From Gammaproteobacteria bacterium CG11_big_fil_rev_8_21_14_0_20_46_22 (GTDB taxonomy: Bacteria > Pseudomonadota > Gammaproteobacteria > UBA12402): 64,000 bases of DNA. The position numbers and the translations under genes are program-made. Below the pieces are notes generated by a model that was not told the origin of the DNA, made no database searches, and saw only the letters and a list, made by a program, of their open reading frames with translations. Below, one piece after another: positions 3,720 to 25,891 of this stretch. Numbering within the stretch: position 1 is the first letter of the stretch; every line of letters starts with the position of its first letter. The stretch covers positions 5,790 through 69,789 of the forward strand of contig PCWT01000048.1 of NCBI GenBank assembly GCA_002796245.1. The letters are read 5' to 3'.

Positions 3720-4899
3720 TCAATTGTTTGCCGACTTTTTCGAAAGCAGCAATCGCTTTATCTAAATCCGCACGCGTTAAACCAGCCGACATTTGTGTAC
3801 GAATACGGGCTTTTTCACGAGGCACCACCGGGAATGAAAAGGCGATAACATACACGCCTTCTTTTAACATTGCATCGGCAAAGGTTTTAGCAAGCTTAGC
3901 ATCACCCAGCATGACGGGAATAATGGCATGATGGCCCGGCACCAGCTCAAACCCCAATGCTTGCATTTTTTCTCTGAAATATTGGCTGTTTTCACGCAAT
4001 CTTTGACGATACTCTGGTTTTTCTTTAAGCAACTCAATCGCGCGCACCGAAGCTTTCGCAATCATCGGGGCGAGTGAATTTGAAAACAAATACGGGCGTG
4101 AACGCTCGCGAAGCCAGGTAATAATGTCTTTTCGGCCGCTGGTGTAACCGCCGGATGCGCCACCTAAAGCTTTGCCCAGTGTGCCAGTAATAATATCGAC
4201 CCGACCTTCAACACCACAATACTCAGGCGTACCGCGCCCATGTTCGCCCACAAAACCCACAGCATGTGAATCATCAACCATGACTAATGCGTTGTACTTA
4301 TCGGCCAAATCACAAATTGATTTAAGGTCAGCCAAGATACCATCCATAGAAAAAACACCGTCTGTCACAATCAACTTAAAACGCGCGTCAGCCGCCGCTT
4401 TTAACTGCTCTTCAAGATCAGCCATATTGTTATTTTTGTAGCGAAAACGCTGCGCTTTACATAAGCGCACGCCATCAATAATACTCGCGTGATTCAATTC
4501 ATCGCTGATGATTGCATCTTCAGGACCCAACAATGTTTCAAACAATCCTGTGTTCGCATCAAAGCACGATGAATATAAAATGGTATCTTCAGTCCCCAAA
4601 AACTCACTGATCATCTTTTCTAATGTTTTGTGAACACTTTGCGTGCCACAAATAAAACGCACAGAAGCCATGCCATAGCCATAGTGGTCTAAAGCCTGTT
4701 TTGCGGCTTCAATGAGAGCAGGATCATCAGCAAGCCCAAGATAATTATTCGCACAAAGGTTTAGTACCTTCTCGCCCGAGTCGACCTTAATAGAGGCGCT
4801 CTGTGGTGAAGTAATCACTCGTTCGCCCTTATACAAGCCAACTTCTTTCAAGCCTTCAATTTCGGTATGTAGGTGTTTTAAAAACTCGGTGTTACTCAT
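3709..4899 (-). CDS. kbl: 2-amino-3-ketobutyrate CoA ligase (glycine C-acetyltransferase)
   Basis: High similarity to E. coli Kbl along its length ([32 protein letters not shown]). The start ATG is nested in the last codons of the upstream tfuA-like gene. Confidence 0.93.
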
Positions 4900-6136
4900 G
4901 CTGCTCTCCTATGAGATATTGATAGGCCTGAAGGACCCAACGACGGCTGTCCATAATAATAGGAATATCCAACAAATCAAAGCCATTTGTAAGCACTGCA
5001 TATTCAAATAGTGACAAGTACTCAACAAACAGGGGCAAAGCCTGCGTTTCATCCAAATCATTATTCTTAAGCCACTGCAGCGTGGCCTCACGCTGTTTAA
5101 GGCCGTGGCGTTTTCTAAAGCGATTAAAAAAAGCTTGAGCCATACCTGGCGAAAGACTTACCTTGATATCACGATAATAGCTATAAATAAGCGCAAACGC
5201 TTTTGCGATCAACCTAGCCTCAACACCCTTCTCAACATCACGATATAAAGCATAAAATTTTTCAAATTGTGTTTCAGCGTATTCTGTCGATAAAGTTGAA
5301 AAACCCTGAGACCGAATCTCATGTTCGATCTGCAGCACTTTTGCCAAATCAATCAATCGCTGTTTTTGTGCATCTGAACACCCGCACAAAGCGCGCTCAG
5401 TCTCAGGGAGCCAATCATAGTTATTGTCAAACGGCCGACTTATGGCTTCACGGTAAATACGCTTAGTAAAGTAGCTCGGCAGCGCCTGCGGCTTTTTTAT
5501 TTTTGAGCGGATGGGGGTTTGATGAGCAAGCGAAAGTGCCGCTCGCGCATCACAGGCCTTTTGATCGACAGTGTACTTTTTAAAAATCTCGACCGAGAGC
5601 CCAAGCGATGTTAACGTTTGATACACATCACGCTGGTAATACGGTTGTTGCTTAAGCGCATCAATAACCTTCTGAGCATCAATCATCTCAATAGCTTGTT
5701 TTTTTATGGCGTTTTTTAGCGTAGCCCGCACATTTACCAAGGGGACAACCCTTGATTGAAACCCAGCTTCCTGGCTTGAATGCGGCAACGAAACCTCGTC
5801 GTCACCATCAATAAAGCCTGAGTGATACCATTGAAAAATCTCGCCCACACCACGCATACCCTCATCACAGAGCTCAGCAGCACGCAAAGCACCCATGCTC
5901 GCTGCCCCCCAAACTTCAACACCCGAGTCCAGGGCGAATAAAATTTCTTTATGCCATACTGAAGCAGTTTGCTCGAACAAGCCATCAATAATAATTAAAC
6001 GCTTCGGCGATAAGCTCATCAGTTTAAACACATCACCGCAACGTACAGGGTCTGAAAAACAGGCTTCTGGTAAGCATTCTTTTGCCTCCTGCCGGGAAAG
6101 TGTTGGGCCCAAAAAAACGATCGTATCTGTACTCAT
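4892..6136 (-). CDS. tfuA: TfuA-like protein (YcaO partner), N-terminal TfuA domain plus a ~200-aa C-terminal extension
   Basis: N-terminal TfuA-domain hallmarks: [46 protein letters not shown]. Its start overlaps the ycaO stop by 4 nt (ATGA). Confidence 0.8.
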
Positions 6137-7233
6137 ACACTAACTCCTGGTGCAATAAGCTGCACAACAGCAATCGCATCATCGGGTTTTGTGTAAACTA
6201 AACGGTAAATATCGTGTGAAATTGAGGCAAGCAAATGTGTCTGCATCGCTTTAAACGATTGAAACAGCATTGATGATTGTGTTGTGTAATCGATTGTTGC
6301 TTTAAAATTAATCGATTGATTTTTCTGCTCATACAGGGTGTCGACCACATCATCTCGCGAACCTGAAATCAAAGTTAATCGCGACTGAACAGCCTCTGTG
6401 AGCGCACGACTCAGGGCGATATCTTTATTGACGTGTGCACCATAGCCCGAAAAAACACCAACACGTCGAAAAAAGCGCTCGTCAAACAGCGTGGCCATAT
6501 AGCTTGGCATCGTGTTTGCAGTAGAGCTTACATCCACTATGACAAGCGACAGACCCTTTTCCTGCAAAGCCTTTATTCGATCGCGAAGAGGTGGGCAATC
6601 AATAGTATTCAATTTAATCGCACGATGCGCTTTTTCTGCATCAGAGAGACGGTGATAACGATAGGCATTCATACGTTCAATGATTTCAAGTAAAGCATGA
6701 CAACTTGCCTCTTCTAGATTATTACCCGAGGCCAAACCCGTCGTTGTTCGCTTAAAGAGCGTGTTTTCCAGCGTGCATTCGGTTAAATCAAATGAAATGG
6801 CTGCGCGAGGAATATAATACACCTCACCGCTCAAACAATGTCTTAGCGCTGTCCAGGCAATTGGCAAGTTCAAAAGATCATCGTGTTTAAATGTGCCTTG
6901 CTGAAAAACATCAGGACTAATGCAAGCATATTCATGGCTAAGCGCATGGTAGCTTCCAACAAGGTCAGACGGTGTTTGCTCAGCGTAGTAGTGTTCAATC
7001 GCTTCCATGTACGCGCTACACATCGACAACTCAGGCGTTAAACCTTTACCCTGCGAGGTGCTTAAATTTTTAGAGCGCGGGCGAATACAAGTATGAACCG
7101 GCAAACCCACATCATCCAAACCGGTTAAATCCGCAATACGTGAGATGCCCGCCTGTTTTGCATACGGCTTTAAACAGGCCAAGGTTTCTTCTGGGGTTCT
7201 GGCACGCAATGTCCCGCCAACATCAATAATCAC
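6133..7233 (-). CDS. ycaO: YcaO-domain protein of the TfuA-associated type (GTG start)
   Basis: N-terminus GTLRARTPEETL...GISRIADLTGLDDVGLPV...IRP is typical of TfuA-associated YcaO proteins. The ORF is about 366 aa. It is translationally coupled to the upstream E1 gene and the downstream tfuA. Confidence 0.8.
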   Translation of the reverse strand: MIIDVGGTLRARTPEETLACLKPYAKQAGISRIADLTGLDDVGLPVHTCIRPRSKNLSTSQGKGLTPELSMCSAYMEAIEHYYAEQTPSDLVGSYHALSHEYACISPDVFQQGTFKHDDLLNLPIAWTALRHCLSGEVYYIPRAAISFDLTECTLENTLFKRTTTGLASGNNLEEASCHALLEIIERMNAYRYHRLSDAEKAHRAIKLNTIDCPPLRDRIKALQEKGLSLVIVDVSSTANTMPSYMATLFDERFFRRVGVFSGYGAHVNKDIALSRALTEAVQSRLTLISGSRDDVVDTLYEQKNQSINFKATIDYTTQSSMLFQSFKAMQTHLLASISHDIYRLVYTKPDDAIAVVQLIAPGVSV

Positions 7234-8339
7234 TAATAACTCGACTTATGAGGCTCAAAGTCTTTTATCCAAGCGATAATGCCACCTTGTAAATTATACA
7301 CATCTTTAAGTCCGCGATTTTTCAGCCAGTACACTGCCTGTGCAGAGCGCCCCCCTGAGCGGCAATATATGACGAGTGGTGACTTGAATTCGCTGACATC
7401 CATTTCTCTAATGTCCGCTAAAGGCACGGCTTTATCGCCATCGATTTGACAAATGTCTCGCTCCCAAGCTTCACGCACATCGATTAAAGTAAAAGCTTTC
7501 CCTGAGTCAAACCAGCTTTTCAAAGCTTCACACGTCAACACAGGAATGGCATTGGCTTTCTTGGGGGCTTCAGATAAATCTTTCAATGGTTTATGTAACT
7601 GACAAGTTGGGCAATCTTTTCGTGTGATGATAGGATGACGCTTCATCTGCATATTCAAAAGATCCAACTGAACAAAACTATTGTTGAGTTTTTCTGGCAA
7701 ATTAAGCAAGTGTTTGATCGCCTCGGTGGCAGCCAATGTACCCAAAACGCCCGGCACCGTACCCAATACACCGGCTTGTGCACAATTAGGTATGACACCT
7801 TCTGGTGGCGGGTTGGGGTATAAACAACGGTAACAGGGCGAGCTTTGATGACTTAGAGCGATCAACTGACCCGAAAACTGATAAATGCTGGCTGAAATTA
7901 AGGGTATCTTTTTTTGTGCGCAGGCATCAGCAACCAAGTAGCGTGTTTCATAATTATCGCTACCATCAATCACCAGGTCATAACCGTCTAACAGAACATC
8001 AATATTCGCTAAACTTAAGCGATCATTAATTGGAACAAGCTCACAAGCCGTATTAAGCGCAAACAGCTTATCGCGTGCGCACTCAACTTTTGCACGCCCT
8101 TCATCCCTCTCTGAGAACAACACCTGCCGCTGTAAGTTTGATAGCTCGACACTATCGTCATCAATAAACGCAAGCTTACCTACGCCACAAGCCGCTAAAT
8201 ATAATAACGCCGGTGAGCCAATCCCGCCGGCGCCAATACAAAGTATCGAGGATTGTTTTAATGTTTCCTGACCGGCTCGACCTATTTTCTCTACAGAGAA
8301 GTGCCGCGCATAACGAAGGTTTTCAGCTTGAGTGAACAT
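7233..8339 (-). CDS. MoeB/ThiF-type E1-like adenylyltransferase with C-terminal rhodanese domain (MoeZ-like sulfur-carrier activase)
   Basis: Rossmann motif GAGGIGS, CxxC...CxxC zinc motifs, and a C-terminal rhodanese active site CRSGGRS. Confidence 0.8.
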   Translation of the reverse strand: MFTQAENLRYARHFSVEKIGRAGQETLKQSSILCIGAGGIGSPALLYLAACGVGKLAFIDDDSVELSNLQRQVLFSERDEGRAKVECARDKLFALNTACELVPINDRLSLANIDVLLDGYDLVIDGSDNYETRYLVADACAQKKIPLISASIYQFSGQLIALSHQSSPCYRCLYPNPPPEGVIPNCAQAGVLGTVPGVLGTLAATEAIKHLLNLPEKLNNSFVQLDLLNMQMKRHPIITRKDCPTCQLHKPLKDLSEAPKKANAIPVLTCEALKSWFDSGKAFTLIDVREAWERDICQIDGDKAVPLADIREMDVSEFKSPLVIYCRSGGRSAQAVYWLKNRGLKDVYNLQGGIIAWIKDFEPHKSSY

Positions 8340-8602
8340 TATCCACCCGAAACCGATGTGATAAGCTCAAGCTCATCACCCGAGCTAAACGTGACATCAT
8401 CTAAATCGTCGACTAACGGCTTGCCATTGTGGTACACATTTAAAAACCCGTGAAGCTCATCGCCTTGATACATGACACGGAACAAAGCCGGCTCATGCTC
8501 ATGAAGGTAAGCCTTCAAGCTTGACATTGAGTTCACATCTAATGTCTTCTCACGCCAGTGGCTAAAACGCTCTAGTGCTTCGGGTAATAATAACTTGATC
8601 AT
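8339..8602 (-). CDS. MoaD/ThiS-family beta-grasp sulfur-carrier protein ending in Gly-Gly
   Basis: The 87-aa product has the N-terminus MIKLLL and the C-terminus SGDELELITSVSGG-stop, which is the MoaD/ThiS signature. Its Shine-Dalgarno sequence AAGGAGG lies in the last codons of the upstream methyltransferase, and its stop overlaps the E1 start. Confidence 0.65.
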   Translation of the reverse strand: MIKLLLPEALERFSHWREKTLDVNSMSSLKAYLHEHEPALFRVMYQGDELHGFLNVYHNGKPLVDDLDDVTFSSGDELELITSVSGG

Positions 8603-9271
8603 TCAAACCTCCTTTATGGCGAACGTTAAGCCATCGCCAATTGGCAAAATGACAGTCTTTAAGCCGGGGTGCTGAGCCAAGGCTGTGTTACACGCCAGTA
8701 TATTTTTTAGCAAGGTATTGGGTTTGGCTTGACTGATCACCTCACCTTTCCACAAAGTATTATCCAAAAGTAAAACTCCACCCCTGGGTAACAAGTCAAA
8801 GCACGCTTCTGCGTAATACAAGTATTTTGACTTATTCGCGTCGATAAAGCACAGGTCAAACCGCTGCTGATCTTGCTTTAACTGCAGCAAAGAAGCTCCA
8901 GCTTCACCTTCTAGGCAGGTAATTTTATTCGCCATGCCAGCCTTTTCCCAAAACGGCCGACCAAAATCAGGCATTTCAGTGTCAATGTCACAAGTGATAA
9001 TTTCACCGTTCACAGGCAAGGCCATAGCCATGGCCAGGGTCGAAAAACCTGTGAAGGTGCCAAGCTCTAAGACGCGCTGTGCCCCAGAAAGCTTAATCAG
9101 CATTTGTAAAAAAGCGGCTAAGTCCATGCTGGATTGCATCTGCCCTTTCGGCAAAGAAGCTGTTTCCGCATGAAGTTCGAGTAAAATCGGATCCAGCGGC
9201 GTCATGTGTGCTTCTAAGTAGCCTTGAAGGCCGTCGGGTAAAAGGTGGTTTTGCGTGCTCATAGCGCTCAT
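8603..9271 (-). CDS. Class I SAM-dependent, cation-dependent O-methyltransferase (caffeoyl-CoA OMT / catechol-OMT / TrmR-like family)
   Basis: SAM-binding motif LELGTFTGFS. Metal-binding residues in IDANK and LLLDNTLW are typical of the Methyltransf_3 family. Confidence 0.75.
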   Translation of the reverse strand: MSAMSTQNHLLPDGLQGYLEAHMTPLDPILLELHAETASLPKGQMQSSMDLAAFLQMLIKLSGAQRVLELGTFTGFSTLAMAMALPVNGEIITCDIDTEMPDFGRPFWEKAGMANKITCLEGEAGASLLQLKQDQQRFDLCFIDANKSKYLYYAEACFDLLPRGGVLLLDNTLWKGEVISQAKPNTLLKNILACNTALAQHPGLKTVILPIGDGLTFAIKEV

Positions 9272-17558: not shown

Positions 17559-19205
17559 TTACATCATGCCGCCCATGCCGCCCATTCCACCCATGCCGCC
17601 CATACCGCCGCCAGCAGGTTCTTCTTCTCTTGGCATGTCAGTGATCATGCACTCAGTAGTCAGCATCAAACCCGCGATCGACGCCGCTTTTTCAAGTGCT
17701 GTACGTGTCACTTTCGTTGGATCTAAAATACCCATTTCGATCATGTCACCGAACTCGCCTGTCGCTGCGTTGTAGCCGTAGTTACCTTTGGCTTCCAAAA
17801 CTTTGTTCACAACCACAGCCGGCTCGTCGCCCGCATTTTTAGTGATTTGACGCAAAGGTGCTTGAAGCGCACGACGTGCGATCGCAATACCCATGTCTTG
17901 ATCGGCATTGTCACCTTTGACTTTTTCAATGGCTTGCATCACGCGAATCAGTGCAACACCGCCACCGGCAACCACGCCCTCTTCAACTGCAGCGCGTGTC
18001 GCATGCAAGGCATCATCCACACGCATTTTCTTTTCTTTCATTTCAGCTTCAGTTGACGCACCCACTTTGATCACTGCAACACCGCCGGCTAATTTTGCCA
18101 AACGTTCTTGCAATTTTTCTTTGTCGTAGTCAGAGCTTGTGTCTTCGATGTGTTTGCGAATGCTTTCAACACGCGCTTTAATCGCTTTGCCGTCACCTTC
18201 ACCATCGATCACTGTAGTTTCATCTTTTGTGACCACAATACGTTTGGCGGTACCCAAGTCTTCAAGTGTCGACTTTTCAAGGCTTAAACCGATTTCTTCA
18301 GAAATCACTTTACCGCCTGTCAAAATCGCGATGTCTTCCATCATGGCTTTACGACGATCACCAAAACCTGGTGCTTTCACCGCACACACTTTTACCGTGC
18401 CGCGCATATTATTCACAACCAAGGTTGCCAAGGCTTCGCCTTCGACATCTTCAGCAATGATCAATAAAGGATGACCTGATTTAGCCACGCCTTCTAACAC
18501 GGGCAACATTTCACGGATATTAGAGATTTTCTTATCAACCAATAGAATGTAGGGCTTTTCAAGCTCGACAGACATGGTTTCTTGGTTGTTAACAAAGTAC
18601 GGCGATAAATAACCGCGATCAAATTGCATACCTTCGACCACTGATAATTCGTTATCAAAACCCGAACCCTCTTCAACCGTGATAACACCTTCTTTGCCGA
18701 CTTTTTCCATCGCTTTTGCAATGATTTCACCAACAGAAGCATCAGCGTTCGCTGAAATCGTACCCACTTGGGCAATCGATTTATTATCAGTGCAAGGTTT
18801 AGACAAGCTTTTTAAATGCCCAACCGCCGCTTGAACAGCTTTTTCGATACCGCGTTTGATATCCATTGGGCTCATACCCGCCACAACGGCTTTTTCACCT
18901 TCAAGCACAAATTCACGCGCCAAAACCGTGGCCGTTGTTGTGCCATCGCCAGCTTCGTCTGCTGTTTGAGACGCCACTTCTTTGACAAACTGTGCGCCCA
19001 TGTTTTGAAGCTTGTGTTCAAGCTCTATTTCTTTAGCCACAGTCACGCCATCTTTGGTCATCAACGGTGCGCCGAAAGATTTATCAATCATGACATTACG
19101 GCCTTTTGGACCCATAGTCACCGCAACCGCATCAGCCAAGACATTCATACCAATGATCAAATGACGGCGCGCTTCTAATCCATGTTCTACTAATTTAGCA
19201 CTCAT
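17559..19205 (-). CDS. groEL: Chaperonin GroEL (Hsp60) with C-terminal GGM repeat
   Basis: Full-length similarity to Legionella and Coxiella Hsp60. The C-terminus is [14 protein letters not shown]. Confidence 0.97.
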
Positions 19206-19219
19206 AGTTTTCTCCCCAA

Positions 19220-19504
19220 TTATTCTTCAATACCCATGATGTCTTCTTCACGCATGACAACGAATTCTTTGCCATCGATTTTGACATCCGTACCGGCATA
19301 TTTACCAAACCAAACCATATCGCCCGCTTTAACTTCAACAGCCACCAAATTGCCATTGTTGTCATGCTTGCCTTTACCGGCTGCGACCACCTTGCCGCGG
19401 CTTGGTTTTTCTTTTGCATTATCAGGAATCACGATGCCACCGGCCGTCACTTCTTCTTCAAAACGTTCGATCAAAACACGATCGTGTAATGGTCTGAAAT
19501 TCAT
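19220..19504 (-). CDS. groES: Co-chaperonin GroES
   Basis: [14 protein letters not shown] matches GroES. A GGAGG Shine-Dalgarno sequence lies upstream. The ORF-track extension to 19540 uses an upstream GTG. Confidence 0.95.
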
Positions 19505-19569: not shown

Positions 19570-19600
19570 ATATGGGGTTGAGGTCAAGAAATTTCAAGGC
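19570..19600 (-). promoter_or_regulatory. Sigma32-type heat-shock promoter for groESL
   Basis: On the minus strand: GGCCTTGAAA, then a 14-nt spacer, then CCCCATAT. This matches the sigma32 consensus CCCTTGAA-N13-15-CCCCATNT. The -35 element overlaps the stop codon of the upstream GT-C gene. Confidence 0.55.
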
Positions 19601-21105
19601 CTGCGGCGATAAACCAAAAAATCTTTTGTTTGGTCGGACAAATAATAACCAGCCGCGAATTCACGGTACCTTGGAAAACGGCGCAGTATGTCATTGTAGT
19701 GTCGTTTCCTAAAGAAAATGATCAGTTTAGGGCGCGTACTTTCCAGGGAATCAAAAAACAAATTTTCGGCTTGCCTCACCCAGTAGTGCTGTCTAAGCGT
19801 CAACTTACCTTTAGCTTCAAGCTTTGGTATCGCCGGCATAAATAGCAGCGAGGGTGTTTTGATCGCTGAGTAAAGCCCAGGGTAATTGTTCCAAAGCACT
19901 TCATTTAAACCAATGTTCTCATCCGCCATCAACACAGCACCCTGCTCAACGTGCATTTTTTTGGGTATTTTCAATAAGCGTACATATACGCTTTTATTGC
20001 TGTTGGCTAAGAAAACACCGGTGTAGTTTACTTTTAGGATGACTGAAAGCACGACAGCTATCATAAAAAACAGACTAATAATCAGCATAACCGTTGATTT
20101 AAGCTCGCGCCCAAACGCAAAACCTTTCGCTTTTAAGTCGGCATAGTAATGTCCACAGGTTAAAAATAACATTGCCGTCATGAGAACAATAAAAGGATAA
20201 ATATGGTAATACCAGGCTTTGTGCTGAATAAAATATGCGCCCCATAAATAGCCTGCAGCTGCAATTAAGCAAACACGAGCAAACGGACCTTTTAGGTGGC
20301 GCAAAGCCACACAGGCGAAAAGGAACGCGGCTATCCAAGCGAGACAGGCATTGTAGGAAAGCAACAAAGTCCAACTCGCTTGCCAGAAAGGCAAATAGAG
20401 CGTTGTCACCAGCGGCAACATTTTCGTGTAGTACTCTGGTGTAAAATAAGCGATCAAAACCAGGTAAAGGCAGCCCAACACAAAAAAGCTAACCAGCTCG
20501 ACGCTCAAAAGCACCCGCAATCTTCTGGCGCGAACAGCCGCATAAAATTCAACCAACAATAAAGGCAGCAAAAAGTAAGGCTTAAGAAAAAAACCTAAGG
20601 CAGCAAAGCCAATCACAAGTCCTCGCATCAAGGGGCTTACACTTTTCCCCGTTAACGCGACCGAGCGCATACAAAAATACGGCACAGAAAAAACGATCGC
20701 GAAACATTCTCGCTCACCAAAAATCGTGCCGCTGAGCAAAAAATACCCCACACACAAACCCAAGATAATCGCCTGATATTCTTGAATCGACTTGAGCGAT
20801 TGCTTAATAAAGCGCGCCGAAAGCCACAAAGAGGCAAGGCCGACCAAGTAGTAAAAAAGCAAAAGACTCGCGTGCAAAGAGAGCTGAAAAAGTTTGCTCA
20901 GACCTATAATAAGAAAACCCAGCCAAAGGATTAAAGGTGGGTTCGTTTCAGCAAAGTCGTAATAGTAACGCCCGCCATGAAGCATACTCTGCCCACAATG
21001 CAAAAGCCAAGAAGCGTCCCAGTTCATTAAGCTGTAGGTTTGTATGAAAGTGCTCGCTATGACAATCAAGACGATCCAGGGCAAAATCCGCAATAGACTC
21101 ATCAC
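19594..21105 (-). CDS. GT-C-fold membrane glycosyltransferase (ArnT/PMT_2-like, GT39/GT83 type)
   Basis: The 503-aa product has about 11 predicted TM helices. The first loop carries YDFAETNPPLILW, which is close to the ArnT/PMT motif around EKPPL. Its start overlaps the GT2 stop by 4 nt. Confidence 0.6.
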   Translation of the reverse strand: MMSLLRILPWIVLIVIASTFIQTYSLMNWDASWLLHCGQSMLHGGRYYYDFAETNPPLILWLGFLIIGLSKLFQLSLHASLLLFYYLVGLASLWLSARFIKQSLKSIQEYQAIILGLCVGYFLLSGTIFGERECFAIVFSVPYFCMRSVALTGKSVSPLMRGLVIGFAALGFFLKPYFLLPLLLVEFYAAVRARRLRVLLSVELVSFFVLGCLYLVLIAYFTPEYYTKMLPLVTTLYLPFWQASWTLLLSYNACLAWIAAFLFACVALRHLKGPFARVCLIAAAGYLWGAYFIQHKAWYYHIYPFIVLMTAMLFLTCGHYYADLKAKGFAFGRELKSTVMLIISLFFMIAVVLSVILKVNYTGVFLANSNKSVYVRLLKIPKKMHVEQGAVLMADENIGLNEVLWNNYPGLYSAIKTPSLLFMPAIPKLEAKGKLTLRQHYWVRQAENLFFDSLESTRPKLIIFFRKRHYNDILRRFPRYREFAAGYYLSDQTKDFLVYRRRP

Positions 21106-21818
21106 CTAGGCCCAAACTTAAACATCACTAGCTTTAAAAAATGCGTAAAAAACTTAAGTATTTCACGAAAAGATAATTTACTTTTACCGTGCAAGCGATT
21201 ACCAAATTCAATGGGCACCTCCACGATCTTTGGTTTTTTAAGCTTAACCATTAGCTCAAGACCAATTTTGTAACCAATCGGGCTTAGGGTATTTTTCACA
21301 GCGGCATAGTCACTCTGACGCAAAGCAAAGAAACCCGACAAAGGATCATTAATGCGCACAAGACAACGGCCCAACTGTTTGGCAACCCAAGCATTAATAT
21401 GCCTTAGTCCGCTCCACTGTTCGTCGATTTTGGCTGAATGCACATAGCGGGAACCCAAAACCATATCCGCCCTTTCAAGTACCTCAACCAGTGCCGGAAT
21501 TTTCTCTGGCGGGTGAGAAAGATCAGCGTCCATGCACAACAGGATATCACCCAAGGCTTGATTAAAACCTTCAATCACAGAAAGGCTTAAGCTTCGATTC
21601 GCTTTTCGTACCTTAAGCTTTAACCAGGGATATTGTGCTTGTAATGATGCAACAATAACTTGTGTGTCATCCCCCGAGTCATCGTCAACCAAGATCACTT
21701 CAAAGACTGAAAACTCAGGAGCAATACTTGCCAAACGCTCACACAACGGCGAAATATTCTCTGCCTCTTGATAGCAAGGAATAATGACGGAGAGTCGCTG
21801 TTGCTTTAAATTTTTCAT
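21102..21818 (-). CDS. GT2-family polyprenol-phosphate glycosyltransferase (ArnC/DPM1-like)
   Basis: LSVIIPCYQEAENI...VILVDDDSGDDT is the GT-A DxD signature. The 238-aa size matches the ArnC/Dpm1 family. Confidence 0.8.
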   Translation of the reverse strand: MKNLKQQRLSVIIPCYQEAENISPLCERLASIAPEFSVFEVILVDDDSGDDTQVIVASLQAQYPWLKLKVRKANRSLSLSVIEGFNQALGDILLCMDADLSHPPEKIPALVEVLERADMVLGSRYVHSAKIDEQWSGLRHINAWVAKQLGRCLVRINDPLSGFFALRQSDYAAVKNTLSPIGYKIGLELMVKLKKPKIVEVPIEFGNRLHGKSKLSFREILKFFTHFLKLVMFKFGPR

Positions 21819-21840: not shown

Positions 21841-23202
21841 TTAGGATGATCCAGCGCTTATTAACATAAGAAACAAATACCACCAAGGATGATTTTTAGA
21901 CCGTGTGGCAATCATGTCCGCGTTTAAACGCACGATGATCCAATCAAAAATATAAACCGCTCGAATAAACCCCGGGTAGTCCTCCAAGCTTAAGCCGCCA
22001 GCGTTTAAAAAATGATTTAAATCATCTTGATAAATCAAGCTGCGCTCGTAACGAAAGCGTGTCGAGAATGCTTCAAGTTTTCCAGGCGCAATCAAAAACC
22101 CTTTCCTGTCAACGAGCCGAACCAAAGACGACCATGCCTGGGCTAAGTGTGTTTGAACAAAGGGCTGGGCCTTAGGAAATAATTGCTGGGTGTAGACAAG
22201 GTATAATGGCTGAAGTTTCGATAAGGGCGCTTTTTTAAGCAGCCCTTCACACTCATCAACCAATGATTGATGCACGAGATAATGCTTGGATGATGCTTTA
22301 AAGTGCTCAATGGCTTGGAGCAGCTCATCTGCCTCATTTGCACGCCCATCGTTTACATTGCTTAAAATCAACCATGCTCTAGCTAAATACTGCCAAGCCT
22401 TTTCAGCCTCAAGAACGTGCTCTTTCGCCCAATAGCTTATATGAAATTCTGCGGGCATTGCAGGGTGCTTAATCGACAGGCCCTGTGTCGCAGACAGCAA
22501 AGACAAGGTGGTCATCGCCTGAGTCATTACAGGCTTTTGAGTTTTTCTGCTCTGCTCAATATCCCCTTTTGCTAAAGTTTTGAGTAATAAAATAGCATCC
22601 TCACGTTTAAAGTCTTTAACGCCTGCTTTAAGATATTTTTTGGCTTGAGCTTTGAGCTCAGAATCACGCATTAAGCGAAGTATTTGTGCGGGTTTTCTAT
22701 CTAAGAAAGCTAACGCTTGAGTTGCGTTAATTAGTGCTCTTGAAAGCGCTGGCGATACGTTTTTTTTCGCACATTGTTCTTCAAGGTCATAACGCAAATT
22801 AACCAAGGCGATGGTGTGGGGCGTATACTGCTCATCGTGCAATAAAGCGACCTCGTCATCTCCCGTGAGCCTACCATCGTAAAAATCTTCAAAAATTCGT
22901 CCAACGCCTTTCATGCCGAAATCGCAAAGCTCGGCGGCACGCAGAGCACCCATGCTCGCGGCACCATAGACAGGAATGCCTTGGCCCATCACCCACAAAA
23001 TTTCTTTGTGCCACACACTGGCTTGCTCATAAAAATAGCCGTCGATAATCGCGATCGCTTTCGGTTTTAATCGAGCCGCTGATAACAAATCACCACAACG
23101 CACCGGTGGAAAACACAACGCACAATCTAGTATGGCTTCAACGTCTTGGTGTGCAATACTGGGCCCTGAAAAAACAATAATGTTATCGCTCAGCAAACTC
23201 AT
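21841..23202 (-). CDS. tfuA: TfuA-like protein, second paralog, with a long C-terminal extension
   Basis: [45 protein letters not shown]. It is about 50% identical to the first TfuA over the domain. The ATG chosen here lies 2 nt after the ycaO-2 stop; the track ORF runs further up to 23256. Confidence 0.75.
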   Translation of the reverse strand: MSLLSDNIIVFSGPSIAHQDVEAILDCALCFPPVRCGDLLSAARLKPKAIAIIDGYFYEQASVWHKEILWVMGQGIPVYGAASMGALRAAELCDFGMKGVGRIFEDFYDGRLTGDDEVALLHDEQYTPHTIALVNLRYDLEEQCAKKNVSPALSRALINATQALAFLDRKPAQILRLMRDSELKAQAKKYLKAGVKDFKREDAILLLKTLAKGDIEQSRKTQKPVMTQAMTTLSLLSATQGLSIKHPAMPAEFHISYWAKEHVLEAEKAWQYLARAWLILSNVNDGRANEADELLQAIEHFKASSKHYLVHQSLVDECEGLLKKAPLSKLQPLYLVYTQQLFPKAQPFVQTHLAQAWSSLVRLVDRKGFLIAPGKLEAFSTRFRYERSLIYQDDLNHFLNAGGLSLEDYPGFIRAVYIFDWIIVRLNADMIATRSKNHPWWYLFLMLISAGSS

Positions 23203-23204
23203 TT

Positions 23205-24314
23205 TTAACGCTGGCTCCCAAAAACAAAACCCGGTATTAAGACACTGACAACCCAAATGCCCAAAGCATCAAGCTGCCGATTCATAAAGATCAACTCGTC
23301 AAAACCAGCTTTAGACAGCAACGTCGTTAGCTCAGAAAAGCCGGCCTCATCTTGAGAGAAACCCTGTGTTTCTTCGATAGACTGAAAGGACAAGGTGCCA
23401 AGCTGTGAAACCGCTTGACCACCCTGAACTGCTTGAAAGCCTTTTTGATAATAGTGAGGGAAAATATCATCGCGGCTACCACTGGTGATCGCAACCTTTG
23501 CTTGAATCGCTTCTGTCAGGGATCGCATAAGCGCGTGATTTCGAGTAAAACTTGCACCACTACCCGAAAAACAATCCTGTCGCCCTAAGCCTTCAGAACT
23601 TATCGTACAATAAAAGCTTGGCACCCCGGCTATGCAGTGAATATCCCAAACACGAACCTGAAAGCCTTTAGAAGCACATCGGTTTATCCAATGACATAAA
23701 GCGGGATCATCAATGGTGCTAATATCAAGCTCATATTGTCTTTGTAATTTAGGTAGGCGAGCATTCCACGCCGTAAGCGCATGGCGCTCAATGGCTTCAA
23801 ACATGGCATGGCAGGCGGCAAAGTACCGTGTTTCACCACCACCCATTCCATTACTGCTGATGTGAAAATAACTAAAATCAGACCGCTCAACACTAGAGTC
23901 TATATCAAACACATTTTGGGGCACAAAAAGAGCTTGTGTGTTTTTTCGATGAAGGCGCTCAGCCAAAACCCAAGCGAGAGGTTGATCATGAATATTACAG
24001 AGAAAAGCACTCTGGCAAAATAAAGCTGGATCGACCAAGGCATGTTCATCTTTTAGCGCATTGTAAGCCCCATGAAGCAAGGCTTTGGGAGGGTTCTCTA
24101 AGCAATCGCTCTCAACAGCCTCCATCAATGCGGACAATTTCGCTTGTTCAGCTGTTTGCCCTTTTCCCAAAGCTACCGATAAATGCTTCGCTTGTGGGCG
24201 TATGGCTGAAAAAACGGGCAGACCGATAGGGTCTAGGCGGGTCAAGTCAGCCAGCCTTGTTACACCAAACGTTTGCCTTTGCTCAAGCAACTTTGTTAAA
24301 CAAGGCTGGCTCAA
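23205..24314 (-). CDS. ycaO: YcaO-domain protein of the TfuA-associated type, second paralog (TTG start)
   Basis: GVTRLADLTRLDPIGLPVFSAIRP and overall collinearity with YcaO-1. The N-terminus is about 15 aa shorter than YcaO-1. The start codon is TTG. Confidence 0.75.
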   Translation of the reverse strand: MSQPCLTKLLEQRQTFGVTRLADLTRLDPIGLPVFSAIRPQAKHLSVALGKGQTAEQAKLSALMEAVESDCLENPPKALLHGAYNALKDEHALVDPALFCQSAFLCNIHDQPLAWVLAERLHRKNTQALFVPQNVFDIDSSVERSDFSYFHISSNGMGGGETRYFAACHAMFEAIERHALTAWNARLPKLQRQYELDISTIDDPALCHWINRCASKGFQVRVWDIHCIAGVPSFYCTISSEGLGRQDCFSGSGASFTRNHALMRSLTEAIQAKVAITSGSRDDIFPHYYQKGFQAVQGGQAVSQLGTLSFQSIEETQGFSQDEAGFSELTTLLSKAGFDELIFMNRQLDALGIWVVSVLIPGFVFGSQR

Positions 24315-24322
24315 AATAGTGA

Positions 24323-24445
24323 TTAGCTCAATTGATCCACTAAATCATTACTGGTAAAGACAGGACCAATAACGGGCGTACTAAAATGCACGACATCCTC
24401 TGCTAGATCTTGTGTTAATGCGCAATTAAACGATTGTGTTTTCAT
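24323..24445 (-). CDS. Unannotated 40-codon ORF (MKTQSFNCALTQDLAEDVVHFSTPVIGPVFTSNDLVDQLS) directly upstream of ycaO-2; candidate precursor peptide
   Basis: ATG preceded by AAGGAG at 8-nt spacing. Its stop lies 8 nt before the ycaO-2 start. It is absent from the ORF track only because it falls below the 60-aa cutoff. No homology is recognised. Confidence 0.3.
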   Translation of the reverse strand: MKTQSFNCALTQDLAEDVVHFSTPVIGPVFTSNDLVDQLS

Positions 24446-24520
24446 GGGATAAACTCCTTTAGTATAGAACCGTATTATTTTTATGCGCGTATTCTAGCAA
24501 AAACCCGATGAAAATCGCAA

Positions 24521-25891
24521 TCATTCCTCTAACTTTTTAGCTGAAACACGAATAGCGCCTCGCAACAAAGGGGAAGCCTCACAAAATGGCATACCCTCAA
24601 AACCAGCAAGCACCGATTTTAAATTAGCATCGCTATCAGGCAAATGTGACGTTGATAAGATACTACCGTCGCTCGACGCTTCAAAGTGAAAACCCTTAAA
24701 TGCCGTATTCGCGATTTTTTGAATCATATCAGTCGTTTTAATACCCAGCGAATCATCCATAAACTCAGCCTGTGTTTTACGCAAAATATACATCAAGTTT
24801 TCCATGTCATTGAGCTTGCTGGTCGTTTTTTTTGAACGCGGGTAAAACTCAAGCAGTGTTGGATAGGCCAAGCTGTAATAAATTGGATTATCCGGCGCGT
24901 CAGAAAATACATTAAGATAATCTTGGTAAGCAAACGTTGGCGCATAACGCAAGCCATAGACATCAACAAAAATTTTACTGAGCATATCAACCGGGCCTGG
25001 CTCGTTTTGTGTTGCGATACGAAAGCCCGTGGCACTGCCCAAGGCCAGCTGATAGATATGGCTAATCGTATCCAACAAGTACGGGTTCTGCTTCAAGTTT
25101 TTTTGATTGATGATGCACGAATAAGCATAATCAAAGACCACCTGATTTCGTAATCCTGACGTTTTATTTAAAACCACGCTGGCTAAGTACTCACGAAACA
25201 AGCGCCATTTAAATTCTTTTTTCTCTTTTAACCAATCTTCGCTAAAAAACAACACATCAACAGTCCAAGCGGGCGAGAGTGTTTGCTTAGTCATGATTTC
25301 ATGAAAAATGCGATATTGATCCGCCAGATCAATGGGCGGGTCACCTTTAAGTGCAAACGTACGCTGTAATTTTCTAAAGTAGGTTTTATCAGAAAATTTT
25401 GACAGAAGAAAAAAACTTCTAGCGCCGGCAGAGATGGTCCATACCTTACCTAAGTGCGCAGAGCTTTTAACATCTAAGGCGGTCCATAAAGCAAAAATGG
25501 ACCCTGCTTTCATGTATTGAAAAGGGGTTGCTTGGCCGCCTTCTAACTCAATAAACAGCTCCAAGGAGTGATCAAGCACGACACCCATTGGCATCGCGTG
25601 CGTATACGATAAGGCTTTAGCGTAGTGTGGATCCAGACTGGGATCATTCAATGACACAACCCCACCTCTAGTGCGAGGCAAATTAAGCTGGCCTTTATCC
25701 AGAATAGCCTCGCCCCAACGGTATCTTGCTTTGTAGAGTTTATAATCGTCAGAAGGCGATAACTCATCAATGGCATTTGCAAGTTCAGGGTTCGCTTGCT
25801 TAACAAGCGTTCGCGCTTCTTTCCATGTTAAGACATCAACCGCGAGTGTATTATTTGAATCCGTCATAGGATAATGCCGCTTCCTTTTCAC
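24521..25891 (-). CDS. Hypothetical 456-aa protein, no recognisable family
   Basis: A long ORF with its start immediately upstream of the small ORF. It has no motifs I recognise and no signal peptide. Confidence 0.5.
   Translation of the reverse strand: MKRKRHYPMTDSNNTLAVDVLTWKEARTLVKQANPELANAIDELSPSDDYKLYKARYRWGEAILDKGQLNLPRTRGGVVSLNDPSLDPHYAKALSYTHAMPMGVVLDHSLELFIELEGGQATPFQYMKAGSIFALWTALDVKSSAHLGKVWTISAGARSFFLLSKFSDKTYFRKLQRTFALKGDPPIDLADQYRIFHEIMTKQTLSPAWTVDVLFFSEDWLKEKKEFKWRLFREYLASVVLNKTSGLRNQVVFDYAYSCIINQKNLKQNPYLLDTISHIYQLALGSATGFRIATQNEPGPVDMLSKIFVDVYGLRYAPTFAYQDYLNVFSDAPDNPIYYSLAYPTLLEFYPRSKKTTSKLNDMENLMYILRKTQAEFMDDSLGIKTTDMIQKIANTAFKGFHFEASSDGSILSTSHLPDSDANLKSVLAGFEGMPFCEASPLLRGAIRVSAKKLEE

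Follow-up and report, generated by a model that had tools for sequence, protein, structure and literature searches.

According to genome mining, proteobacterial YcaO-TfuA clusters are numerous and for the most part uncharacterised (PMC8120280, PMC9576775). The enzyme pairs now number in the thousands, and almost none of them has an assigned substrate. To our knowledge, the thioamidated peptides characterised so far all come from Actinobacteria, with the exception of one example from Desulforegula. The question of what such a pair acts on is raised by a 64,000-nucleotide stretch of DNA (hereafter the window), which derives from groundwater metagenome-assembled genomes (MAGs) deposited as 'Gammaproteobacteria bacterium CG11/CG12_big_fil_rev...'. 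In this DNA, a 40-codon open reading frame (ORF) lies between a gene of an orphan family and the genes ycaO-2 and tfuA-2.

A 40-codon reading frame ahead of ycaO-2

The ORF is located on the minus strand at positions 24323..24445, runs from ATG to TAA and has the translation MKTQSFNCALTQDLAEDVVHFSTPVIGPVFTSNDLVDQLS. Residues 1-22 form a variable acidic N-terminal half, and residues 23-40 constitute a conserved C-terminal segment. A Shine-Dalgarno (SD) sequence, AAAGGAG, is present on the same strand at 24454..24460, with AAGGAG at 24459-24454, 8 nt ahead of the ATG. Another 8 nt (tcactatt) separate the TAA from the TTG at 24314 that opens the 369-aa ORF of YcaO-2, and tfuA-2 follows directly after ycaO-2. 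A short ORF that carries its own translation signal thus adjoins ycaO and tfuA, in frame, spacing and strand as the initial annotation had described it. The TTG start of ycaO-2 is weak, and no good SD precedes it.

By itself, the arrangement AAGGAG-N8-ATG is not significant (one occurrence for 0.48 expected, and at least one in 38 of 100 shuffles). The hexamer AAGGAG is rarer in the window than expected, with 10 copies versus 23, and half of these copies (5 of 10) are found 6-9 nt before the start codon of an ORF of at least 40 codons, which indicates that the motif behaves as a real SD sequence in this DNA. Upstream, in the 75-nt gap between the stop of the orphan gene and the SD of the peptide, a sigma-70-like match (TTGCGA-18-TAGAAT, with an upstream TG; 24491..24520, minus strand) may be the own promoter of the peptide/ycaO-2/tfuA-2 cassette. 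This match is a positional hint, and the number of sigma-70-like matches in the region is not above that of shuffled sequences.

In the GenBank record of the MAG, PIQ42907 is the pyruvate kinase and PIQ42909 the YcaO; the one accession between them belongs to the 456-aa gene, and the peptide has none. The earlier description of the ORF as unannotated therefore holds for this record, whereas the gene callers of metagenome collections predicted the 40-aa ORF on 22 contigs, all of the same species as the window. The YcaO of GenBank starts at an ATT at 24332, so that its coding sequence runs over the stop codon of the peptide and the three sense codons before it. We also considered whether the SD and the ATG could belong to an extended N-terminus of YcaO-2, a possibility that the initial annotation had raised against its own proposal. 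This is ruled out, since the peptide and ycaO-2 are read in different frames and a TGA at 24347-24345 closes the ycaO-2 frame before it could extend to the ATG or the SD of the peptide.

Conservation of the peptide and its association with ycaO and tfuA

Direct protein searches gave no relatives of the peptide. A word-indexed search of 5.8 billion proteins returned the query itself only, an exhaustive phmmer search of 1.84 billion representatives gave no true relative beyond it, tblastn against plasmids produced a chance match only, and nothing was obtained for the peptide from Pfam or NCBIfam. Two giant repeat proteins of the Ig/DUF11 type (P0085 and P0086), which scored in phmmer, were rejected as repeat-inflated chance matches, because each score adds up 9-16 weak matches of repeated strands that resemble 'TPPVGPVVTDTD'. 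The search was therefore conducted through the neighbouring genes.

A divergent metagenome contig (L012) carries, in this order, an orphan gene, a 43-aa ORF, a YcaO gene and a TfuA gene; its orphan and YcaO are 60% and 41% identical to those of the window. The 43-aa ORF, MIIENSIFDLTATLSACEQATMPVAVPVVGPVFTSNDLVDQLY, has the same position and orientation as the window peptide. Over their last 17 residues, the two peptides agree at 15 positions (PV[IV]GPVFTSNDLVDQL), whereas their N-terminal halves are barely alignable, and the overall similarity lies above that of all 2000 shuffles (p<0.0005). Over the last 17 sense codons minus the final one, five of the six nucleotide differences are synonymous and fall at third positions. 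The SD is kept as well, as AAAAGGAG-N7-ATG with the same AAAGGAG. At the nucleotide level, the identity between the window and L012 is 60% in the orphan gene, 47% in the intergenic spacer, 41% in codons 1-22 of the peptide, 79% in codons 23-40 with the stop, 49% in YcaO and 44% in TfuA. The best 45-nt segment of the aligned 4-kb block (24373-24329, 89%) is located inside the C-terminal half of the peptide.

No Rfam family was found over the peptide region, and RNA folding across the peptide/ycaO-2 junction revealed no significant structure (z=0.21). Together with the in-frame synonymous pattern and the conserved C-terminal half, this indicates protein-coding conservation in the frame of the peptide. 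The ORF is under purifying selection in its frame, and we regard it as a real gene with high confidence. The initial annotation had held that a lack of conservation in frame or position would speak against the ORF; the 43-aa ORF of L012 is conserved in both respects, with differences that are mostly synonymous. A second variant of the L012-type peptide (P0088) has changes at residues 3 and 23 only, and recognisably homologous peptides outside the window's own species come from one lineage only. The small ORF of another locus, L013, is marginal (p=0.009 against the L012 peptide, not significant against the window peptide). In the metagenome contig collection, the degenerate DNA pattern for GPxFTxNDLxDQL, which does match the window and L012, gave no hit, and a second scan of this collection, with the YcaO alignment, gave 160 pattern matches and 0 confirmed relatives.

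The peptide travels with ycaO and tfuA. At two loci (L010 and L011), the orphan is 84% identical and the tkt-gap-pgk-pyk context is that of the window. At these loci the GT2 gene starts 24 nt after the stop of the orphan gene, whereas in the window it comes after tfuA-2. The spacer, the peptide, ycaO and tfuA, which form one 2.7-kb block, are missing together, and the leftover orphan-GT2 spacer resembles the tfuA-GT2 spacer of the window. On a plasmid-like locus (P0078), a 40-aa ORF is located directly upstream of YcaO, with a 1339-aa gene between this ORF and the orphan gene.

An alignment of the orphan was scanned against 185,579 species genomes, which gave 65 loci, and these were inspected for SD-preceded ORFs of 30-60 aa that lie at most 250 nt downstream of the orphan gene. 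Such an ORF is present at 6 of the 9 loci with YcaO/TfuA versus 2 of the 56 loci without (Fisher p=2.6e-5), in a test whose criteria were fixed after some loci had been seen and whose 65 loci are not phylogenetically independent. Most of the small ORFs after the orphan gene are unrelated in sequence to each other; in most of them, the N-terminal half is acidic and an SD-like motif is present. At the corresponding position, L018 and L031 encode members of a second family of conserved peptides (PYSM[NT]K[IV]TLIP). RiPP precursors usually show this combination of a fixed position, a variable sequence and a tie to the modifying enzymes. Thus, the ORF is both conserved in frame and position, in one independent homologous lineage, and co-inherited with the enzymes. 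The small ORFs of L013, L027, L070, L009, L014 and L043 were considered as homologues of the window peptide; homology is not demonstrable, and they are positional analogues only. The motif GP.?F is enriched, with nine occurrences versus 1.8 expected, a count for a pattern picked post hoc that is inflated by related loci.

The packing of the conservation into the last 17 codons, by the stop, the position of this stop just before a weak TTG and a cassette devoid of protease or exporter would also suit a putative regulatory uORF or leader peptide, which would control YcaO-2 and TfuA-2 by arrest or attenuation of the TnaC/SecM type or by coupling at the stop. We regard such a role as unlikely. Neither a fixed stop/start geometry nor the structure of an RNA switch was found: the gap between the stop and ycaO is not kept (8 nt in the window versus ∼50 nt in L012 and L013), and the junction shows no significant fold and matches no Rfam family, as described earlier. 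The small ORF of L070 faces ycaO and tfuA in convergent orientation, and in L027 and L031, YcaO is separated from the small ORF by ThiS or ThiF genes, so that coupling to ycaO is not general. Moreover, entirely different small ORFs occupy this position from cluster to cluster, as is the case for RiPP precursors.

YcaO-2, TfuA-2 and the proposed thioamidation

YcaO-2 (23205..24314, minus strand, 369 aa) matches PF02624 over positions 2-324 of 325 (2.7e-51), and S61/E65/E68 and E173/E176/R177 are invariant across 10 related YcaOs. It is nevertheless an outlier, whose best database relatives are 32-35% identical. TfuA-2 (21841..23202, minus strand, 453 aa) consists of an N-terminal TfuA domain, which matches PF07812 over positions 1-118 of 119 (4.4e-40), and a C-terminal extension of ∼240 aa for which Pfam and NCBIfam gave nothing. 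Residues 8-212 of the protein match the solved TfuA 6xp8 (7e-30), and the AF2 model, made from an alignment of 2 sequences only, has a pLDDT of 39. Long TfuAs recur in related clusters (340-522 aa, most of them 410-520 aa). The ATP-binding domain of the YcaO and the TfuA domain both look intact.

A sulfur donor system, composed of a ThiS-type carrier and a ThiF-type activator, is encoded in the same window, ∼15 kb from the cassette, in a group of genes that we call cluster 1. The ThiS/MoaD-like sulfur carrier (8339..8602, minus strand, 87 aa) ends in GG and is probably a sulfur donor usable by TfuA-2. The ThiF/MoeB-rhodanese fusion (7233..8339, minus strand, 368 aa), with homologues that contain PF00899 and PF00581, is the activating enzyme of this ThiS-like protein. 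In relatives, the corresponding genes separate YcaO from the small ORF. Cluster 1 also contains a second pair on the minus strand at 4892..7233, with YcaO-1 at 6133-7233 and TfuA-1 at 4892-6136, and no small ORF was recognisable beside it. The peptide/ycaO-2/tfuA-2 cassette is chromosomal and lies within a row of glycolysis genes; its neighbours in the window are the orphan, GT2, a membrane protein, groES/EL and the glycolysis genes. In the cassette itself, we found no protease, exporter or recognisable RRE domain.

On these genetic and genomic grounds, we favour, with moderate confidence, the reading that the 40-codon ORF encodes the precursor peptide of a minimal peptide/ycaO-2/tfuA-2 cassette located between the orphan and GT2. 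The initial annotation had proposed a candidate precursor peptide, and this proposal is strengthened by the conservation in L012, the joint absence with the enzymes in L010 and the enrichment of small ORFs at loci with YcaO/TfuA. The cassette would be a minimal three-gene unit (a 40-aa peptide, a YcaO and a TfuA) with a conserved 17-residue segment.

The peptide would be translated from its own SD, and ycaO-2 would be translationally coupled to it across the 8-nt gap. Surveys of thioamidated RiPPs describe YcaO as an enzyme that phosphorylates a backbone amide oxygen with ATP (PMC5589413, PMC8120280), and TfuA delivers sulfide from the ThiS thiocarboxylate according to Liu et al. 2021, as cited in PMC9576775. 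By analogy, YcaO-2 would spend ATP to phosphorylate an amide oxygen in the backbone of the peptide, whereupon TfuA-2 would release sulfide through hydrolysis of the thiocarboxylate on a ThiS-type carrier charged by the ThiF-rhodanese, in the relay encoded at 7233-8602. The end product would carry one or more backbone thioamides, in which oxygen is exchanged for sulfur. We infer this chemistry, the sulfur route and the role of the peptide as substrate from published YcaO/TfuA work. The PV[IV]GPVFTSNDLVDQL segment would serve as the modified core or as the recognition sequence of the enzymes.

The layout proposed in the initial annotation, with an N-terminal leader and a C-terminal core, may apply; a conserved C-terminal half behind a variable N-terminal half fits a C-terminal follower or recognition sequence equally well. 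Bottromycin is made from a precursor with an N-terminal core and a C-terminal follower that its YcaOs recognise; these enzymes form an azoline and a macroamidine without a TfuA. The window peptide would resemble the bottromycin precursor BotA in this follower-type layout and in its modification by a YcaO, but it has no sequence similarity to BotA, and the comparison is made on 2-3 sequences.

Judged by analogy, the cassette would work like those of thioamidated RiPPs of the YcaO-TfuA type (thioviridamide-type thioamitides, thiovarsolins, thioamidated thiopeptides and Desulforegula Tha-1), in which a short gene-encoded peptide is modified by the products of ycaO and tfuA and ThiS/ThiF homologues are at hand for sulfur. 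However, the window peptide is without similarity to any known precursor family, TfuA-2 has its long extra C-terminus, and the cluster is tied to a Legionellales family of ∼450 aa. The enzymes score below every NCBIfam equivalog cutoff tried, which included models of the McrA, E. coli and SagD types; for the azoline-forming SagD type (TIGR03604), YcaO-2 reaches 69.1 versus a cutoff of 219, and TOMM partner genes for an E1-like/RRE protein or a dehydrogenase are absent, with a TfuA instead. In contrast to thioamitide clusters, the cassette has no tailoring genes for AviCys formation or methylation, no protease and no exporter; with neither the precursor likeness nor the AviCys tailoring genes, it does not belong to the thioviridamide-like thioamitides. 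The long TfuA, the orphan partner family and the placement of a minimal cassette in a glycolysis gene row are unusual traits of this locus.

The orphan family and other possible substrates

The orphan gene (24521..25867, minus strand) encodes 448 aa from the start chosen by the gene callers, and the longest ORF, to 25891, encodes 456 aa. Pfam and NCBIfam gave nothing for it. Its AF2 model is confident and shows weak similarity to a cyclic-nucleotide-binding beta-roll, with no close solved relative. The homologues are graded in identity (84, 60, 46, 40, 37 ... 27%) and occupy >70 loci, both chromosomal and plasmid-borne; the family is present on ∼30 Legionella and Francisella plasmids, and the 65 loci of the genome scan are nearly all from Legionellales, Coxiellaceae or unclassified Gammaproteobacteria. 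In the annotation, which covered up to 10 kb on each side, a minority of these 65 loci (about 5) have YcaO/TfuA genes. Even so, the orphan family adjoins YcaO/TfuA far more often than expected by chance, and its gene is often the nearest one upstream of peptide/YcaO/TfuA. The other downstream neighbours comprise SAM methyltransferases, TP_methylase, SAH-hydrolase-like genes, ATP-grasp and transporters, and one locus (L086) has the order orphan, ATP-grasp, AlaDH-like.

YcaO enzymes are known to act on the full-length proteins McrA and uL16 (PMC5589413, PMC13063428), and the initial annotation had named the adjacent 456-aa orphan as an alternative substrate. The substrate would then be the orphan or a protein encoded elsewhere, and the 40-aa product an unrelated accessory protein. 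The proposed chemistry and the type of enzyme pair are indeed those of McrA thioglycine formation by the YcaO/TfuA of methanogens and of uL16 modification by the YcaO of E. coli, and YcaO thioamidation of uL16 is established in Pseudomonadota (PMC13063428). The orphan adjoins YcaO/TfuA beyond chance, and the best NCBIfam matches of YcaO-2 and TfuA-2 are the McrA-thioamidation models.

However, these matches stay far below the equivalog cutoffs (TIGR03266 and NF033432: 118.6 versus 365 and 184 versus 235.2, respectively), and the organism is a gammaproteobacterium without MCR in which a short ORF accompanies the enzymes. Against the E. coli-type model NF040716, YcaO-2 scores 20.6 versus a cutoff of 700; YcaOs of that type have ∼580 aa and need no TfuA, whereas YcaO-2 has 369 aa and a TfuA partner. 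Moreover, most orphans occur without YcaO/TfuA, and L010 keeps its orphan without the cassette, which was lost there or never gained. This weakens the case for the orphan as substrate: from its gene contexts, the orphan resembles a pathway protein or a hub more than an obligate thioamidation substrate. Its remaining neighbours (methyltransferases, SAH-hydrolase-like genes, ATP-grasp and transporters) likewise speak against such a role, and the strong purifying selection on the peptide would be left unexplained. We consider a full-length protein substrate improbable.

The conjugative Legionella plasmid pLPL carries a related cluster with the order PTR2, orphan, ATP-grasp, ThiS, ThiF, YcaO and TfuA, an order that is also found on ∼25 other Legionella plasmids. 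Its ycaO and tfuA are listed as 'unknown function' (PMC3218107). The pLPL cluster is like that of the window in its orphan family, YcaO type, long TfuA and adjacent ThiS/ThiF. It differs in that the plasmid adds an ATP-grasp ligase and PTR2 and that no small ORF is evident in clusters of this type, whereas the window cassette is chromosomal and has a small ORF. The YcaO clade may thus not always use a gene-encoded short peptide. A di/tripeptide transporter of the POT/PTR2 type is a recurrent neighbour in relatives and may indicate that the final product is very small; the window lacks both such a transporter gene and a protease.

These plasmids, the ATP-grasp and AlaDH-like genes at L086 and the recurrence of PTR2 would fit a pair YcaO-2/TfuA-2 that acts on a small non-ribosomal peptide or metabolite, with the 40-aa ORF being incidental. 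For the window, we judge this very unlikely. The cassette contains neither ATP-grasp nor PTR2, and an SD-preceded small ORF is present where ATP-grasp is absent. Moreover, every characterised TfuA-dependent YcaO that we know of acts on gene-encoded peptides or proteins. Finally, an untranslated frame that arose by chance in the spacer is hardly credible as an explanation of the ORF: it is short, AAGGAG-N8-ATG arises in 38% of shuffles and GenBank has no annotation, but the frame is conserved with synonymous changes and a kept SD although the flanking enzymes are only 41-60% identical, and the best-conserved 45 nt of the aligned block fall within it.

A precursor peptide modified by YcaO-2 and TfuA-2 would tie this enzyme pair to a conserved uncharacterised family that is common in Legionella, in Coxiella-like bacteria and on their conjugative plasmids, in which the label 'unknown function' has stood against ycaO and tfuA since 2011. 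A broader reading, which we hold to be doubtful, is that the orphan family stands at the centre of a so far undescribed system of Legionellales for peptide natural products. In such a system, the orphan would act as a maturase or scaffold for short gene-encoded peptides, served by interchangeable tailoring modules (YcaO/TfuA thioamidation, ATP-grasp ligases, SAM methyltransferases) and by POT/MFS exporters, and the window cassette would be one variant. Among these short gene-encoded peptides, several have a G-P-x-F-type motif, and one has a double-glycine leader.

Start site of YcaO-2 and AAGGAG usage

The YcaO-2 protein deposited in GenBank (PIQ42909.1) has 375 aa and starts with an ATT codon at window position 24332 (minus strand), 18 nt upstream of the TTG (24314) chosen by other gene callers. 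This ATT, which overlaps the final three sense codons and the stop codon of the 40-aa ORF (the candidate precursor peptide gene, 24323-24445, minus strand), is probably a start-site mis-call. The AAGGAG hexamer that precedes the ATG of the 40-aa ORF is strongly depleted when both strands of the whole window are considered (10 copies versus 23 expected from shuffles), and half of the copies are located 6-9 nt 5' of start codons. Depletion and placement are consistent with selection against internal Shine-Dalgarno-like sequences.

The orphan family and its plasmid relatives

The family of the orphan, the 448-aa protein encoded upstream of the 40-aa ORF (24521-25867, minus strand), was found at >70 loci (L007, L009-L080 and L081-L088). 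With few exceptions these belong to Legionellales, Coxiellaceae and related MAGs or to Legionella and Francisella plasmids, and several paralogues in one genome are frequent. The AF2 model of the orphan is confident; no close relative was found for it in the PDB, where only a cNMP-binding-like beta-roll was matched. The gene neighbours of the family are variable and include genes for methyltransferases, TP_methylase, SAH-hydrolase-like proteins, ATP-grasp proteins, PTR2/MFS transporters and YcaO/TfuA.

On the L. pneumophila Lens plasmid pLPL (L081, NC_006366.1, 3036-11821), the gene order is PTR2 transporter, hypothetical protein, orphan homologue, ATP-grasp, MoaD/ThiS, MoeB/ThiF, YcaO and TfuA, with no small precursor ORF evident in this cluster. 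Many conjugative plasmids of Legionella share this arrangement; ycaO and tfuA of a Legionella plasmid were given as being of unknown function in a genome paper from 2011 (PMC3218107). The P0078 locus (JGI 3300072015), a plasmid-like contig that carries ParB and Rep3, encodes ThiS, ThiF-rhodanese, an orphan homologue, a 1339-aa unannotated protein, a 40-aa ORF of its own, YcaO, TfuA and PTR2, and another unannotated protein, of 1235 aa, upstream.

Other small ORFs adjoining orphan genes

A second conserved family of small ORFs lies immediately 3' of the orphan gene in loci L018 (11361-11495, plus strand) and L031 (11396-11560, plus strand). Both members contain PYSM[NT]K[IV]TLIP, and their N-terminal halves are acidic; ThiF, YcaO and TfuA come after the small ORF in L031. 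An ORF of locus L070 (ASMNKIDP) is possibly related to them. In loci L043 (9622-9798, minus strand) and L047 (9587-9763, minus strand), a 58-aa ORF divergent to the adjoining orphan gene has a leader of the classic double-glycine type, LAKEISIEEADAVSGG|QSETLMTTGPTFKG...; the surroundings include TP_methylase and MFS genes, and no YcaO/TfuA was found within about 6-10 kb on each side. A G-P-x-F motif, a pattern picked post hoc, recurs in small ORFs near orphans (the window, L012, L013, L043/47 and L050/56).

Second thioamidation cluster and genes downstream of the cassette

Besides the cassette formed by the 40-aa ORF, ycaO-2 and tfuA-2, the window contains a second thioamidation cluster (4892-9271, minus strand). 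It encodes an O-methyltransferase-like protein (8603-9271), a ThiS-like protein ending in GG (8339-8602), ThiF-rhodanese (7233-8339), YcaO-1 (6133-7233) and a long TfuA-1 (4892-6136), and kbl and tdh come next. No Shine-Dalgarno-preceded small ORF adjoins the cluster. The cassette itself is followed 3' by genes for a family-2 glycosyltransferase (GT2) and a 503-aa polytopic membrane protein, which has no Pfam match, and then by groES/groEL (19594-21818 and 17559-19500, minus strand). We place these genes outside the cassette, because GT2 comes straight after the orphan in L010, a relative lacking the cassette.
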